Shown here piece after piece: positions 1,455 through 28,505 of a stretch of 32,000 bases of DNA (within the stretch, counting starts at the first letter, position 1; each line of letters opens with the position of its first letter). The position numbers and the translations under genes are program-made. This stretch comes from Methanocaldococcus jannaschii DSM 2661 (GTDB lineage Archaea; AGJL01; Methanococci; Methanococcales; Methanocaldococcaceae), in contig NC_000909.1 of NCBI RefSeq assembly GCF_000091665.1, forward strand, positions 1,247,459 to 1,279,458. The letters are read 5' to 3'. The notes beneath the pieces are model-generated. The model was given only the letters and a program-made list of their open reading frames with translations, made no database searches and was not told the DNA's origin.

Positions 1455-2636
1455 TTATAACACCTTCTTTATAGCATTCCAAACTAAAAAACTCTGAGGC
1501 TTTAAAATCCCTTCTATTGGATTTAAGAATAAGATATTTCTTTTAATTAAAAACTCTCTAATTTTTTTAGGTATTTTTATATCCTCTATTTCATAATCTT
1601 CTTTAAATAATTTTAATGCATCAACAACTTTTTTATAAAGTTCCTCATCTTCTTCTTTAACATCCTCTAAGAAATATTTTAACTTTTGAGTAGCATCCTT
1701 AAGCATAAAATCTAAAATATCGTTTAAATTTTCATATCTCAACTTATCAATAACTTTTATTATTAAAACTGGTTTTCCCCCTACATAATTATAGATTAAC
1801 TCTTTATCTTCATTAGTTAAGCTCATGTTATTCTCTTTAGCCAAAAAATCCATAAATTTTAAGGCAGTTTCCTTATCAAAATCATCCACTAAGATATATT
1901 CACCTCGCATAGAGGCAAAGCCTCTATTGCTATACTCCAGAGCGGGGTTGCCAAAGGCAACCCCACTTTCTATCTGGGGGAGTATACCAATAGAGGGGGC
2001 GTAGCCCCCTCTATGGTCATCCACCAAAATATAATCAACTCTATCCTCCAACATTGCTTCATTATAAACTCTCTCTATGAATAAGCTATCTGAACTTAGG
2101 CAGAAAACGTGGCATAGGTGTTTATGCTTGGTTAGAGATACAAAGTAATTAAATAGCTCATAGATTAAGAATCCATTAATTTTCATGTCTCCAATCTTTT
2201 GAAGTTCATCAATAATAATTATTGGTTGCTTTCCTTCTCTTTTAATGTCCATTAAAACATTGGTTATATATCTAAAAACATTTTTAGTTGTTTTCTTTTT
2301 AAAAATCTCGTTTAGAGTATTTTTTGGTATGGGAATGCCATACAATGAAGGTAAGTCATTGATAATTGCCTTAATTACTTCTATAGGGCTTTTATCTCCT
2401 TCATATTCCTCAAACAAAACTTCAATGAAATCATCGTATTTAGAGATAAAAATCTCCCTCAAATCAAAATAAAACACAATGTATTTATTTTTATCTAATC
2501 TATTGTTAATAATCTCATTTATTAAGGCAGTTTTTCCACTATTTATGGAGCCATAGATGAAATAAATCAAATTTGGTTCTCCTTCTATAATAGATAAGAT
2601 TTTATGAATTTCTTTCTCTCTATTGAAGAATTTCAT
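1455..2636 (-). CDS. Archaeal AAA-type ATPase (Arch_ATPase-like) carrying an in-frame repeat insertion
   Basis: Walker A GSINSGKT and Walker B IIIIDELQ. The ATG at 2636 is preceded by GGTGAT, so I prefer it to the track start at 2657. Confidence 0.75.
1905..2016. mobile_element. MITE-like palindromic element inserted in frame within the ATPase CDS
   Basis: Three hairpins: 1909-1927, 1944-1964 and 1990-2014. The two arms are inverted copies of each other (cctctattgCtatactcc vs cctctattgGtatactcc). Flanked by a 24-nt direct duplication, 1881-1904 vs 2016-2039, that encodes YILVDD twice. Confidence 0.75.
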
Positions 2637-2682
2637 AAAAATCACCAAAATTCCCATTATAAAATGAGAATATATAGTAAAT

Positions 2683-3193: not shown

Positions 3194-4684
3194 TTATTCT
3201 TTCACTTTCCATTTTCTATGTAGATATATCGCTTTAGTTGGGCAAATATTGTAGCAAGCTCCACAGAACTCACATCTCTCTTTATCAATAACTCCATAAT
3301 CAATGCAATTATTTGGGCAGACCTTGTTGCAGAGACCACACTTTATACAGAAGTCCATATCAGTTCTAATAAATGAGTTTTCTCTATCAACAACCTTTTT
3401 ATAGCCAGTTGTGTTTGGAATCACATCTCTTGGGCAGTGAATAGCACATGTTTCACAAGCTATGCAATTATCAGTAAATAAAACCTCTCCATTACTTCTG
3501 TCTATTATTATAGCGTCTCTTGGACATACATTTGAGCATGTTCCACAGAGTATGCAGTTTTCATCTTTAATTTTCTCCAATTTAACTGTTGTTATTGATA
3601 TTGCTTCTTCTGGACAGTTATTTATACAAATTTCACATAGAGAGCAGCCTCCAACAACTCTATCATCTACAGGACTTTCGCAGGAGTAAAGTTTATTATT
3701 GCCCATAGATGCCTTTGGCATCAAATTTCCTTTATGGATGTATAATCTGCGAAAGTCCTGTTTAATTCTTCTAACATCGTTAGGGCAGATTTTAACGCAT
3801 TCCATACATTTCCAACAAACATCTGGGCTGTAATATAGATGTCCATTCTCAAACCTTAAAGCTCCACTTGGGCAGTGTTCAGCACACAACCCACAATTTA
3901 TACAATAACTTGTTGGTTGGGATGTTTTATCTTCCTTAACTTTAATAACTTTAAAGTTTTCAACTTTTAAAGCATCGTTAGGGCAGATTTCAACACATTT
4001 TAAACAGAGAATGCATTTATTATAATCTACTTCTCCATCTTTAATGGCATCTTTTGGGCAGTTCTCTCCACACAAATTGCAGGATGTGCATGCATCTATA
4101 GAATCTGGGACTATAGTATCTCTTGGACATAAATAAGAGCATCTTAAGCATCCAACGCATTTATCTCTATCAATTTTAATAGATTTCCTTTCTACTTTTT
4201 CAACAACTTTTCCTGGTTTTTCTTCAGCTCTAAATAATTTAACTTTCATAAGATTCTCTAAAACTTTTAAGTATCTCTCTGCTAAGCCTTCTCTCTTTGT
4301 GTTTAACAATTCATAAGAGCTAACTCTTGCATTGTAAGGGCAAACCTCAACACAGACGCCACACATTGAGCAAATTCCCATTGGGAATTTTTTTCCATCT
4401 TTCTCTACAATCTTTATAATTCCAATTGGGCAGACGTTGGCACATATACCGCAACCGTTACATCTCCTTCTATCTACATAATAGCCTCCAAACTCATTCC
4501 TCTTAATTGCCTTGTTTGGGCAGTTTCTTGCACACTCTCCGCATGTTAAACAGCTAAAACTTTTATTATTTAATAAAAATATTGCATCTGTTGGACAAGC
4601 TTCCATACACTTGGATGTTTGTGAGAAAGGACAGGATTGGCATTTCTCCTCTACCCTACATTCATCTAATATAGTTATAATCAT
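3194..4684 (-). CDS. Polyferredoxin with 14 predicted [4Fe-4S] sites (EhbL-like by recollection)
   Basis: 13 canonical CxxCxxCxxxCP motifs plus one atypical N-terminal motif ([17 protein letters not shown]). The ATG at 4684 is preceded by GGGGAGGAAGG. The track start at 4699 is a TTG. Confidence 0.85.
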
Positions 4685-9857: not shown

Positions 9858-10823
9858 ATGACTATAGCATTTGGACCAGTTCCATCAAGGAGGTTAGGGA
9901 AGAGTCTAGGGATAAATAGCATTCCATGTAAGTTTTGTAGTTATGATTGTGTATATTGCCAAGTTGGAAGAACCATAAACAAAACTATAGAGAGGAGAGA
10001 GTTTTATAGTCCAGAAGATATTTTTAAGTCAGTAGAGGAGAGGATAGGTAAGCTAAATAATGAGAAAATTGACTACCTCACTTTTGTTGCAGATGGAGAG
10101 CCAACATTAGATATAAATTTATCAAAAGAAGTTGAAATGCTTAGAGATTTTGACATTCCAATAGCAATAATTACAAACTCTTCATTAATTTGGAGGGAAG
10201 ATGTTAGAAATGACATATTAAACTTTGATTTAGTATCTTTTAAGGTTGATTCTGTTGATGAAAAAATTTGGAGAGAAATAAATAGACCTCATAAAGATTT
10301 GGTGTTAGATAAAATCTTAGAAGGAATGATAGCTTTTAGAGATAACTATAAAGGAGAGTTGATAACTGAAACGATGATTTTAGGAAGTATAAAATATACA
10401 GAGGAATCTATAATCAAAACAGCAGAATTTTTAAAAGAATTAAATCCAAATAAATGCTATTTAAATACTCCAATAAGGCCACCATCTGAAAAATATATAA
10501 AACCTCCTAAAATAGAAGTTATAACTAAAATATTAGCCATATTTAATGAAATTATTGGTAAAAATAAAATTAAACTCTTAGGGAAATTTGAAGGAAATGA
10601 ATTTATATTCTCTGAAAATGTTGAAGAGGATATATTGGCTATAACTTCCGTTCATCCAATGAGAGAGGAAGTTATTAAAGAATTGTTAAATAAATCAAAT
10701 ATTAGCTTTGATATTATAAATAAAATGGTAAATGAGGGAAAACTAATAAAATTAGAATATGATGGAAAAGTATTCTATATGAAAAATATTAAAAGTAGGG
10801 ATAAAAATGTATCTAACCCATAG
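9858..10823 (+). CDS. Radical SAM protein
   Basis: CSYDCVYCQ (CxxxCxxC) near the N-terminus. The last codon and the stop codon lie inside the repeat at 10818. Confidence 0.8.
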   Translation: MTIAFGPVPSRRLGKSLGINSIPCKFCSYDCVYCQVGRTINKTIERREFYSPEDIFKSVEERIGKLNNEKIDYLTFVADGEPTLDINLSKEVEMLRDFDIPIAIITNSSLIWREDVRNDILNFDLVSFKVDSVDEKIWREINRPHKDLVLDKILEGMIAFRDNYKGELITETMILGSIKYTEESIIKTAEFLKELNPNKCYLNTPIRPPSEKYIKPPKIEVITKILAIFNEIIGKNKIKLLGKFEGNEFIFSENVEEDILAITSVHPMREEVIKELLNKSNISFDIINKMVNEGKLIKLEYDGKVFYMKNIKSRDKNVSNP

Positions 10824-10914
10824 GGCTTCGCCCTATTGGGATACCCAGAGCGGGGCTTCACTACATTCAGCCCTACTGTAATCTATTTTTAATCAGATTT
10901 TTAGTAAAAATTTG
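10818..10914. mobile_element. MITE-like structured repeat (half-element) flanked by a perfect 21-bp direct duplication
   Basis: agggataaaaatgtatctaac occurs at 10797-10817 and again at 10915-10935. Hairpin at 10820-10836. Shares the core CATAG-stem-CTATTGGGATACCCAGAGCGGGG with the copies at 1905 and 28235. Confidence 0.8.
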
Positions 10915-10924
10915 AGGGATAAAA

Positions 10925-12136
10925 ATGTATCTAACTAAAGAAGAAGAGAAAATATTAGATGGAGAATATGGAGAGGTTTTAAGAAGATGTATGAATTTAT
11001 TAGTTTCTTTGGGAGATATTTATGGAGCTGATAAGCTAATCCCTATAAGCTCAGCTCAAATTTCTGGAGTTTCATACAAAACTATTAAAGATATTGGTTT
11101 AGAGTTTTTGGAAGATTTTGCTAAAGAAGATGTTAAAGTTAAGGTCTATGCCACTTTAAACCCAGCTGGAATGGATTTAGATATATGGAGAGAGCTTGGC
11201 ATTGATGAGAAGTTTGCCAAAAAGCAGTTGAGAATTATTGAAGCATTTAAAAAGATGGAAGTTGAGATAAGTTGCACTTGCACGCCCTATTTAACTGGAA
11301 ACCTTCCAAGATTCGGAGAGCATATAAGTTGGGCCGAAAGCTCAGCTGTGAGCTTTGCAAACTCTGTCTTAGGAGCTAAGACAAATAGAGAAGGTGGGCC
11401 ATCAGCATTAGCAGCTGCAATTATTGGAAAAACACCATATTATGGATATCACTTAGATGAAAATAGAAAGACAACACATATCATTGAGTTAGATGGACAA
11501 TTAATCTCTAACTTTAAATATGGAGAGAGTTTTTATGGAGCTTTAGGTTACTTAGTTGGGAAGATTGTTAAGAATGGCATTCCATATTTTGAAAATCTAT
11601 ATAAATTAAATCCAAATAACGATAATTTAAAATCCTTGGGAGCTGCAATGGCTGCAAGTGGTGGTATCGCCTTATATCACGCAAAAAACTTGACAGCTGA
11701 ATGCAGAGTTAAAGAAGTTGTTAATGATAAAATTGAAAAGATATCTATTGGAGTTGAGGAGATAAAGGAAGCTTATGAAAAATTAAATACAACAAATGAA
11801 GAGCCAGATTTAATTTGTATTGGTTGCCCTCACTGCAGTTTAATGGAAATTAAAAAAATTGCTGAACTTTTAAAAAATAAAAAATTGAATGCTGATTTAT
11901 GGGTTTGCTGCTCTCTTCATATTAAAGCAATAGCAGATAGAATGGGATATACAAAGATTATTGAAAAAGCTGGTGGAAAGGTAGTTAAAGACACCTGTAT
12001 GGTTGTTTCTCCAATTGAGGATTTAGGTTATAAAAGAGTTGCAACAAACTCTGGAAAAGCTGCTGTTTATCTACCAAGCTTTTGTAAGAGTGAAGTAATT
12101 TTTGGAGATATTGAGGAATTGTTAAAAGGGAGATAA
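10925..12136 (+). CDS. Aconitase-X (DUF521) family catalytic subunit; possibly phosphomevalonate dehydratase large subunit
   Basis: About 400 aa. The N-terminus MYLTKEEEKILDGEYGE and the SSAQISG/SWAESSAV segments are as I remember for AcnX-type proteins. The functional assignment is by recollection only. Confidence 0.6.
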   Translation: MYLTKEEEKILDGEYGEVLRRCMNLLVSLGDIYGADKLIPISSAQISGVSYKTIKDIGLEFLEDFAKEDVKVKVYATLNPAGMDLDIWRELGIDEKFAKKQLRIIEAFKKMEVEISCTCTPYLTGNLPRFGEHISWAESSAVSFANSVLGAKTNREGGPSALAAAIIGKTPYYGYHLDENRKTTHIIELDGQLISNFKYGESFYGALGYLVGKIVKNGIPYFENLYKLNPNNDNLKSLGAAMAASGGIALYHAKNLTAECRVKEVVNDKIEKISIGVEEIKEAYEKLNTTNEEPDLICIGCPHCSLMEIKKIAELLKNKKLNADLWVCCSLHIKAIADRMGYTKIIEKAGGKVVKDTCMVVSPIEDLGYKRVATNSGKAAVYLPSFCKSEVIFGDIEELLKGR

Positions 12137-19587: not shown

Positions 19588-20256
19588 GTTAAAATCAGAC
19601 CTCTTGGAGGATGGAAACTTATATTCACTTGTATAATTGTTTTCTATTGCATTCAAAGTTAAAATCAGACCTCTTGGAGGATGGAAACCGCATTCTTTTT
19701 GTATTTTTAACTCTTCTAAAATAGTTAAAATCAGACCTCTTGGAGGATGGAAACAAAGCTGAAATTACTGAGGAAGATACTGAGAAAGTTATAATTAAAA
19801 TAGTTAAAATCAGACCTCTTGGAGGATGGAAACGAAAAAGAGGGTAAATTAACAATCTATAATATTGAGGTTAAAATCAGACCTCTTGGAGGATGGAAAC
19901 GCATTCCATTACCTATATATATACCGTTTATATAGCCGTTTCCATTGTTAAAATCAGACCTCTTGGAGGATGGAAACTTTAATTCTTCAATGCTATTAAC
20001 AGTTTCATCCCTAGTTAAAATCAGACCTCTTGGAGGATGGAAACTGAGTATGGCCTATTGGGATGACAACATACTTAATTAGCCCATTTGTTAAAATCAG
20101 ACCTCTTGGAGGATGGAAATTAAACTCTTTTTTCTTATCTTCTGACAATTGTAAATGTTAAAATCAGACCTCTTGGAGGATGGAAATTATGTGGTTTTAG
20201 AGGATGGGAAGATTGTAGAAAAGGAGTTAAAATCAGACCTCTTGGAGGATGAAAAC
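19588..20256 (+). CRISPR. CRISPR array: 10 copies of the 31-nt repeat GTTAAAATCAGACCTCTTGGAGGATGGAAAC with 9 spacers
   Basis: Repeat starts are at 19588, 19658, 19724, 19803, 19870, 19947, 20014, 20090, 20157 and 20226. Spacer lengths are 39, 35, 48, 36, 46, 36, 45, 36 and 38 nt. Repeats 8-9 end in T instead of C and repeat 10 has a G-to-A change. The ATGGAAAC 3' end fits a + strand crRNA 5' handle. Confidence 0.97.
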
Positions 20257-27964: not shown

Positions 27965-28234
27965 ATGGAGAAGTACGAAAAAGCGGCAGAAATTTTCAAG
28001 GCATTTGGAGACCCAACAAGATTGATGATTTTAAAGTTATTGGCTGAAAATGGAAGCATGTGCGTTTGTAAAATAATAGATGAGCTAAAAAAGCCACAGC
28101 CAACAATCTCACACCACTTAAACATCTTAAAAAAGGCTGGAATAGTTAAAGCAAGAAAAGAAGGAACATGGAATTTCTACTACATCGTAGATGACAGAGT
28201 TAAAGAGATTATTAAATTAGTTGATGAATTATAA
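27965..28234 (+). CDS. ArsR/SmtB-family winged-helix transcriptional regulator
   Basis: FKAFGDPTRLMILKLL ... CVCKIIDEL ... QPTISHHLNILKKAGIV is the classic ArsR HTH pattern. Confidence 0.85.
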   Translation: MEKYEKAAEIFKAFGDPTRLMILKLLAENGSMCVCKIIDELKKPQPTISHHLNILKKAGIVKARKEGTWNFYYIVDDRVKEIIKLVDEL

Positions 28235-28306
28235 CCATAGGAGGAGACCTCCTATTGGGATACCTCCCGTCCATTAAGTTGGGGCTTTCAGCCCCAATTA
28301 ATGTCC
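28235..28306. repeat. Structured MITE-like repeat, two-hairpin copy
   Basis: Hairpins at 28237-28255 (ataggagg/aga/cctcctat) and 28279-28297 (ttggggct/ttc/agccccaa). The left module matches 10818-10845 and the right module matches the reverse complement of 1197-1228. Confidence 0.7.
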
Positions 28307-28505
28307 AAGCTCTATAAAGAACAAGAATGTGACTTCTTAGGTAGTCAGAGGAAACTATAAATTTCTCTTTTTTTAACTATTTTATTTAATGTAGCAAACG
28401 CAATTTATAATAAATGCATGCGTAAAATTATAAATGCTATTTTTGTTATCTCTTAAGAGGATTTTTATTTTTAGAAACCATAAATTTAATATTGTTGGTG
28501 ATGTT

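Follow-up and report, generated by a model that had tools for sequence, protein, structure and literature searches.

The window analysed here comprises 32,000 nucleotides (32 kb) of the genome of Methanocaldococcus jannaschii DSM 2661, and the element in question is a 97-bp hairpin-rich repeat (10818-10914) that lies within it between a radical-SAM gene and an aconitase X (AcnX) gene, which we infer to be MJ1312 and MJ1313. The data indicate that a member of a dispersed repeat family inserted at this junction and duplicated 21 bp of its target, a reading that we hold to be very probable. Taken as a whole, an old insertion of a truncated member of the family into the AcnX start region, combined with a polar mode of copy-in, is a probable account of the locus, whereas the copy-in mechanism by itself is put forward only tentatively. 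The locus illustrates how a small repeat can separate two overlapping genes with neither of them harmed. Across the family, the pattern of duplication fits none of the standard classes of small repeats in prokaryotes.

In the window, the 21-mer AGGGATAAAAATGTATCTAAC has exactly two occurrences, on the + strand on either side of the element (Table 1), and no third match was found there with up to three mismatches allowed, none being expected from 100 shuffles. When one copy is deleted in silico together with the element, the junction reads ...AGT AGG GAT AAA AAT GTA TCT AAC TAA, with the AcnX ATG 14 nt inside the upstream open reading frame (ORF). In the present arrangement, the left copy encodes the last radical-SAM codons (RDKNVSN), the stop codon TAG (10821-10823) is supplied by the element (aac/cca TAG), and a redundant ribosome-binding site (RBS) and ATG remain in this copy, inside which a 24-codon ORF (10807-10881) starts. 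The RBS-like AGGGAT and the ATG of the right copy are the functional pair for AcnX. The initial annotation had described all of this, namely a perfect 21-bp duplication around a 97-bp element, the sequence of the reconstruction, a radical-SAM gene that takes its stop from the element, an AcnX gene that keeps its start and RBS from the second copy and a 24-codon ORF headed by the first, and each point is reproduced by the window search, the window letters and the ORF coordinates. The radical-SAM protein is conserved up to ...KSR, and the tail DKNVSNP is lineage-specific; because the C-terminal tail of this protein is different in every species, the borrowed end is harmless.

Table 1. Positions of the junction features, the modules of the element and the other family copies in the window
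Feature	Position	Strand	Remarks
Radical-SAM gene (MJ1312-like)	9858..10823	+	ORF ends ...SRDKNVSNP
Left copy of the 21-bp duplication (TSD-L)	10797..10817	+	identical to 10915-10935
Head hairpin module CCATAG-GGCTTCGCC-CTATTGG	10818..10839	+	conserved terminus of the repeat family; source of the TAG stop
Linker GATACC (family consensus KATACY)	10840..10845	+	conserved
Second hairpin module CAGAGCGGGGC-TTCACTACATTCA-GCCCTACTG	10846..10878	+	common to L044, L053, L089, L007, L011
TAATCTA	10879..10885	+	last stretch conserved with fuller copies; L044, L007, L011 read ...CCCCACTGTAATCTAAGAGGCATT...
AT-rich tail	10886..10914	+	unique, 29 nt, small AT hairpin; T5 runs at 10886 and 10898
Right copy of the 21-bp duplication (TSD-R)	10915..10935	+	RBS-like AGGGAT, ATG at 10925, first AcnX codons
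AcnX (aconitase X) gene	10925..12136	+	intact; Pfam AcnX match, residues 1 to 400
ATPase_2/MJ1010-like gene hosting element C	1455-2657	-	gene still open
Element C	1907-2016	-	flank repeats 1882-1906 and 2017-2041; head modules at both ends
Element B	28235..28309	+	head directly after the TAA of an ArsR-type gene (27965..28234)

The element itself is built from a GC-rich head (57% GC versus 31% for the window), a second hairpin module with the core GAGCGGGGC-TTCACTACATTCA-GCCCC and a tail that is conserved only in the orthologous copy described below. It folds more stably than shuffled sequence, both as DNA (z = -3.3) and as RNA with flanks (z = -2.7). In fuller copies of the family, the conserved sequence runs past ...CCCCACTGTAATCTA into a mirror-image half that the window copy lacks. 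Because it switches to a unique tail where these copies continue, the window element is a truncated half copy with one head only.

Further occurrences of the first 28 nt of the element, CCATAG-hairpin-CTATTGG-GATAC, are found at positions 28235 (+), 1907 (+) and 2016 (-) of the window, which brings the total to three family copies with four head modules. A motif scan over one genome per species returned at least 120 loci, which together span about 700 kb. About 88 of them are from Methanocaldococcus strains and metagenome-assembled genomes (MAGs), and the remainder are chance matches in bacteria, which lack the hairpin. The listed loci hold at least 138 head motifs, at least 123 of them with a proper interior hairpin. 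The interior stems vary between copies with pairing kept (GGC/GCC, GGGGC/GCCCC, GGAGG/CCTCC, GGAC/GTCC), the outermost stem pair changes from C-G to G-C in other copies (one compensatory pair), and both hairpins are conserved. All 12 matches in viral contigs are chance matches without the hairpin, and plasmid and phage records gave no match to the family.

Element C shows what such an insertion can do inside a gene. Together with locus L090, it represents the two-headed full copies with inverted head modules, and it is flanked by 25-bp repeats that are identical at 21/25 positions. It constitutes an in-frame insertion of 135 nt, or 45 codons including the duplication, which appears in the protein as DYILVDD...EYILVDD. 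The 38 element-encoded residues and the 7-residue duplication lie in the ATPase domain and split its Pfam match in two, and YILVDD is single in all homologues of the host protein, including one at 82% identity. In other genomes, several ATPase_2 paralogues with lengths of 380-393 aa may have insertions at other positions.

Long flank duplications recur throughout the family. For the 103 modules with enough flank, the 18 nt outside the CCATAG end were compared with the sequence 20-400 nt further on, and recurrence as a direct repeat was scored at a threshold of at least 15/18. Such a repeat is present in 48 of the 103 modules, 60-330 nt on, versus 7 of 309 mismatched-locus controls (2%), and the recurrence is perfect over all 18 nt in 13 modules. 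When the 37 best cases were extended, duplication lengths ranged from 16 to 51 bp with a median of 31, and perfect duplications measured 43, 40, 35, 32, 28, 26 and 21 bp. Element C conforms to this pattern, and a long, variable duplication is a hallmark of the family. These results sustain the initial annotation where it proposed an inserted repeat-family member with a genuine target duplication, now backed by further copies and element-free relatives, and where it judged 21 bp to be well above ordinary transposase duplications. The long duplication is no oddity of this locus, as such duplications are family-wide, 16-51 bp long and polar. One insertion with a duplication of about 43 bp (...ATACAGTTGAAGAAGCAAGT) is common to at least five Methanocaldococcus genomes or MAGs (L053 3371, L055 146, L116 495, L091 7526, L042 789); since the same insertion is found in all of these, the redundant copies persist across species in some cases.

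The copies also share a polar layout. Read from head to tail, they present the left DNA, one copy of the duplication, 0-7 nt of filler, the head, the second hairpin, an optional AT-rich tail, the second copy of the duplication and the gene body. After removal of orthologous duplicates and of cases whose "target" was a CRISPR repeat or another module, 21 independent events remained. In 14 of the 21 events (null 0.024), the right-hand copy starts between -3 and +15 nt from the right-hand gene's terminus, this terminus being either a start codon with its RBS or the stop codon of an opposite-strand gene, whereas the head-side junction lies near a terminus of the left-hand gene in only one (null 0.026). 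The anchoring is therefore on the tail side, so that the duplication takes in the 16-51 nt at the terminus of the right-hand gene, which makes the left copy a redundant decoy. This layout is matched exactly by the window element, whose repeat begins at the RBS-like AGGGAT, 10 nt upstream of the ATG of AcnX.

Were selection against insertions that break genes the only force, with insertions and duplication lengths independent of each other, the overhang past the gene end would be expected to be uniform between 0 and the duplication length. The six independent stop-codon cases have overhangs of 0, 1, 1, 5, 0 and 0 nt for duplications of 43, 43, 43, 24, 44 and 50 nt, and selection as the only cause of the anchoring is thereby rejected (Fisher p = 1.4e-4). 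The junctions are imprecise in a characteristic manner. At the head, they contain 0-7 nt of filler (TCATCT, TGTAT, CCCAACA) or 1-6 nt of microhomology; the target at L048 reads CCATAG, and those at L063 and L016 share CC. At the tail, the consensus ...GCCTCTTA overlaps duplications that begin with TTA (L026, L063, L121), giving ...CCTC/TTA microhomology, and 9 of the 21 duplications begin with TTA or TTTA. Filler and microhomology argue against a precise transposase reaction, and together with the long, variable and polar duplications they call for a different mechanism.

The available data are compatible with a model in which insertion at this locus occurred in the AcnX start region, which at that time overlapped the radical-SAM end. 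As the arrangement of copies across the family suggests, a nick in the AT-rich spacer at a gene boundary would offer a 3' end that anneals by a few bases to the variable tail end of the element, and primed copying would then proceed from the tail to the fixed CCATAG head. Microhomology or end joining of the filler type would attach the head at a point 16-51 bp deeper in the gene, and fill-in of the staggered interval would duplicate the gene terminus. At the present junction, the 21 bp that lie from the point of insertion to the RBS of AcnX would have been duplicated, by which AcnX would have been rebuilt intact downstream of the element, and the upstream gene would since have read through the left copy to the TAG of the CCATAG end. 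A DNA or an RNA template would both be compatible with this order of events, and stable triloop hairpins would suit single-stranded DNA equally well. Triloops of the GCGAAGC type, or similar GC-closed ones, are seen on one strand of many head hairpins (window 1987-2016 (-), L090 3807-3828). The GCGAAGC DNA mini-hairpin is exceptionally heat-stable, a property that could be relevant for a single-stranded DNA intermediate at 85 C. The broader proposition, that the family as such spread by polar target-primed copy-in, possibly from an RNA or single-stranded DNA template with a host polymerase and not by a transposase, in a mode so far undescribed in archaea or bacteria, is more doubtful.

The junction in related genomes bears on the age of the insertion. 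It is empty in FS406-22 (agtagagataatatctggTGAaacaATGtatctaac) and in M. bathoardescens (...tacTAAatgctggtgaaacaATGtatctaac), both of which lack the element, contain AATGTATCTAAC only once and have genes that do not overlap, with spacers of 4 and 14 nt and a GGTGA RBS. An uncultured lineage, represented by a Logan contig (L004) and a JGI contig (L130), carries the element at the same site with the same tail in a version 30 bp shorter, which looks like the product of a deletion between two GGGCTTC repeats that took most of the head hairpin. A metagenome scan for the insertion returned only the lineage already represented by L004. Because the filled site is shared between two lineages with about 11% DNA divergence across the locus, and because the flank repeats of L004/L130 are identical at only 14/21 positions, the insertion is old. 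The 21/21 identity in M. jannaschii is then only mildly unusual, about two differences being expected by our estimate, and the seven differences in L004/L130 are odder. At its start, the right copy has AGGGATAA, whose homologue in FS406-22 is the run of radical-SAM codons AGT AGR GAT AA; at the time of the duplication, these C-terminal codons must therefore have directly adjoined ATGTATCTAAC, and an ancestral overlap of the two genes is the account of the junction that best suits this homology.

In M. fervens (L002), sp. 16A (L005), sp. 10A (L129) and another JGI contig (L128), a different downstream gene renders the junction uninformative. Synteny breaks exactly at the radical-SAM 3' end in these genomes (L002 10940-10970, L005 10940-11030, L129 and L128), and the downstream gene varies by species between AcnX, fibrillarin, CheF-arch (opposite strand) and biotin ligase. 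As such, the radical-SAM 3' junction is a recurrent rearrangement point. On an ENA metagenome contig (L127 2270-2781), the radical-SAM orthologue is shortened to 219 aa, and what follows looks like a TnpB (OrfB) gene of the IS200/IS605 type.

Several observations weigh against an old insertion by copy-in. The exact overlapping empty site, which the initial annotation expected to find in relatives, occurs in no sampled relative, so that of its overall interpretation the insertion, the duplication and the effects on the two genes stand, as do the element-free junctions of FS406-22 and M. bathoardescens, and the overlapping form of the empty site is a probable reconstruction. Three of the four flanking genes (those for a TIM-barrel protein, AcnX and CbiB) place M. 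jannaschii nearer to the two empty-site species than to L130; the region in which L130 is at an equal or smaller distance extends only from about 10000 to 11700. This would be explained by loss of the element in the branch of FS406-22 and M. bathoardescens or by movement of the filled allele through recombination, and in a sliding-window comparison aimed at a recent transfer of that allele only a mild mosaic is seen. About half of the head modules have no flank repeat; these include element B, where none was detected, and others that are inner modules or belong to old copies. For the unique tails, a partial sample yielded no match to donor flanks. To our knowledge, no reverse transcriptase is known in Methanocaldococcus, and no transposase lies between inverted modules in the sampled loci, where the single inverted pair, at a distance of 2.8 kb, has housekeeping genes in between. 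Finally, the sample consists of loci picked for the head motif and not of whole genomes.

A more specific version of the copy-in model is RNA-mediated retroposition, in which a transcript runs from the head to an oligo-T terminator, the tail represents read-through of a donor flank, and the U/A-rich RNA 3' end anneals at an AT-rich nick and is reverse-transcribed, as in target-primed reverse transcription (TPRT) of short interspersed nuclear elements (SINEs). The family has this geometry, with a fixed 5' end bearing extra nucleotides, a variable 3' tail, 3' microhomology and polar duplications of variable length, all of which it shares with SINEs and other retroposons without long terminal repeats. 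In addition, tails often end in or beside T-runs, and the hairpins are conserved with compensatory change. SINEs and their relatives are eukaryotic, and the duplications of the hairpin family are longer on average. That no reverse transcriptase is known in these genomes speaks against retroposition, as do the tails, which could not be traced to donor flanks in the sample, and the position of archaeal promoters upstream of the transcript, which would leave copies without a promoter of their own, while the triloop hairpins, which on the complementary strand have loops of the GCGAAGC type, would be no less suited to a single-stranded DNA intermediate. Retroposition is considered unlikely in this specific form.

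A MITE (miniature inverted-repeat transposable element) moved in trans by a DDE transposase would be a more conventional explanation. The enzyme would make long staggered cuts of variable length, as in the IS1634 group, and the link to gene termini would arise from selection only. Long variable direct repeats are indeed known in some insertion sequence (IS) families, such as the IS1634 group with its variable target duplications of tens of bp, and the two-headed copies (element C and L090) are flanked by repeats of 21-25 bp. The family likewise resembles known MITEs (Correia/NEMIS, Sulfolobus SM elements, the RPEs of Rickettsia) in being small, non-coding, structured and multi-copy, in occupying gene ends or in-frame sites and in donating stop codons or other signals. 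However, a MITE carries a terminal inverted repeat at each end, and the duplication around it is short and of a fixed length set by the transposase, whereas the hairpin family often has one conserved end; the window element, with one head and a unique tail, is among the many mobile copies that are one-headed with a non-conserved tail, and the 16-51 bp range is neither short nor fixed. IS1634-group elements, in turn, are autonomous DDE elements with two inverted ends, and no transposase-bearing relative was found in the sampled loci or in the phage, plasmid and viral collections. The filler or microhomology at the junctions, the polarity of 14 versus 1 of 21 events, which a symmetric transposase with selection would not be expected to produce, and the non-uniform overhangs further reduce this explanation to an improbable one.

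Considerably less probable is the view that the element is resident at the junction, as a structured regulatory RNA or a terminator, and that the 21-mers are a local tandem duplication kept for its function, for instance as a decoy start or in translational control. On the sense strand, two T5 runs come after two GC-rich hairpins, an arrangement that resembles an archaeal termination signal and could serve in transcription termination; the left copy offers an RBS and ATG with the 24-codon ORF, and, despite the age of the locus, the 21-mers of M. jannaschii have stayed identical. That identity is only mildly unexpected given the estimate above, and the left copy has decayed in L004/L130. Modules of the same kind turn up in either orientation at scores of loci unrelated to this one, within ORFs and CRISPR repeats as well, and the junction of close relatives has no element. 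Rfam yields no match to the element at gathering score (best E-values 2-4 with a cutoff of up to 10), and ARAGORN finds no tRNA. The only support for the idea of the initial annotation that the element might supply a promoter is a weak TATA-like octamer in the tail, TATTTTTA at 10884-10891, with two mismatches and a background of 3.8% per nt; the start that it implies, at about 10914, is too close to the AcnX RBS under promoter spacing rules (PMC2699501). The published set of transcription start sites has no entries for MJ1312 and MJ1313.

Integration by a Cas1-type enzyme, casposase-like or as off-target spacer integration with duplication of the target between staggered attacks, may be dismissed: although copies lie in or next to CRISPR repeats (L015, L105, L025, L020), the window has a CRISPR array and Cas1 integration duplicates tens of bp, such duplications are of fixed length (14-15 bp for casposons, one repeat length for spacers), which the variable lengths seen here rule out, CRISPR-sited copies have no true duplication and no Cas1 gene is associated with the copies. 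An IS200/IS605-derived PATE or a REP/RAYT element was likewise ruled out, given long duplications and the absence of a fixed flanking motif. Integrative elements at the ends of tRNA or protein genes offer a further likeness, as their flanking repeat is the terminal segment of a gene that stays intact, but they rely on a site-specific integrase and one fixed att site, whereas each copy of the hairpin family duplicates the end of a different gene.

By their description, the MJRE1-3 palindromic elements of M. jannaschii are most likely the published form of the repeat family. Both are short, multi-copy, dispersed, palindromic or hairpin-rich and mostly extragenic in the same organism, with a few copies in ORFs that keep the frame, as element C does here. 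The passages on MJRE repeats in PMC2229807 and PMC2996958 cite Suyama, Lathe and Bork (FEBS Lett 2005) for repeats fused into protein genes and make no mention of long variable flank duplications or of anchoring at gene termini. The literature searched contains no description of long duplications for the hairpin family, and a 2024 review of MITEs does not mention it. The abstract of the original MJRE paper reportedly does not mention long variable duplications or terminus anchoring either. The family is a known one, for which gene junctions are ordinary sites, while its long, variable, polar and terminus-anchored duplication appears to be undescribed in the literature reached.

This pattern matters since nearly all small prokaryotic repeats are viewed as moving by transposases that leave short, fixed duplications. 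It explains how the elements could spread in a genome that is almost 90% coding. Its by-products are gene starts that act as decoys, novel C-terminal tails and insertions into proteins that stay in frame. If the copy-in reading is true, the family would represent a mode of transposition that rebuilds the gene it hits.

Further features of individual copies were observed. A TAA directly before CCATAG, as at element B, is present in several other copies too. An AT-rich palindrome, TGATGAAMCTTTTTCTAAAAGTTTC, is a recurrent target or flank (L090 3668-3850, L061, L023, L073, L047) and itself part of composite elements, which suggests nested insertions. The window contains a CRISPR array of 10 repeats (Rfam CRISPR-DR39) at 19588-20256 (-). 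Element B, which does not lie near this array, shares a second module, GTCCATTAAGTTGGGGC...GCCCCAATTAATGTCC, with copies located inside or at the end of CRISPR arrays at other loci (L015 ~1340-1570, L105 ~3260-3430, L025 156-510, L020 ~2510-2715). In those copies, the repeat is interrupted at ...GGTCTGA/TTTTAAC and resumes after the element without duplication, the apparent flank repeat being merely the next repeat of the array. At L044 (~120-210), a full-length relative of the window element starts about 10 nt past the apparent 3' end of a tRNA gene (GGTTCGAATCCCCGCCGCCCTACCA).

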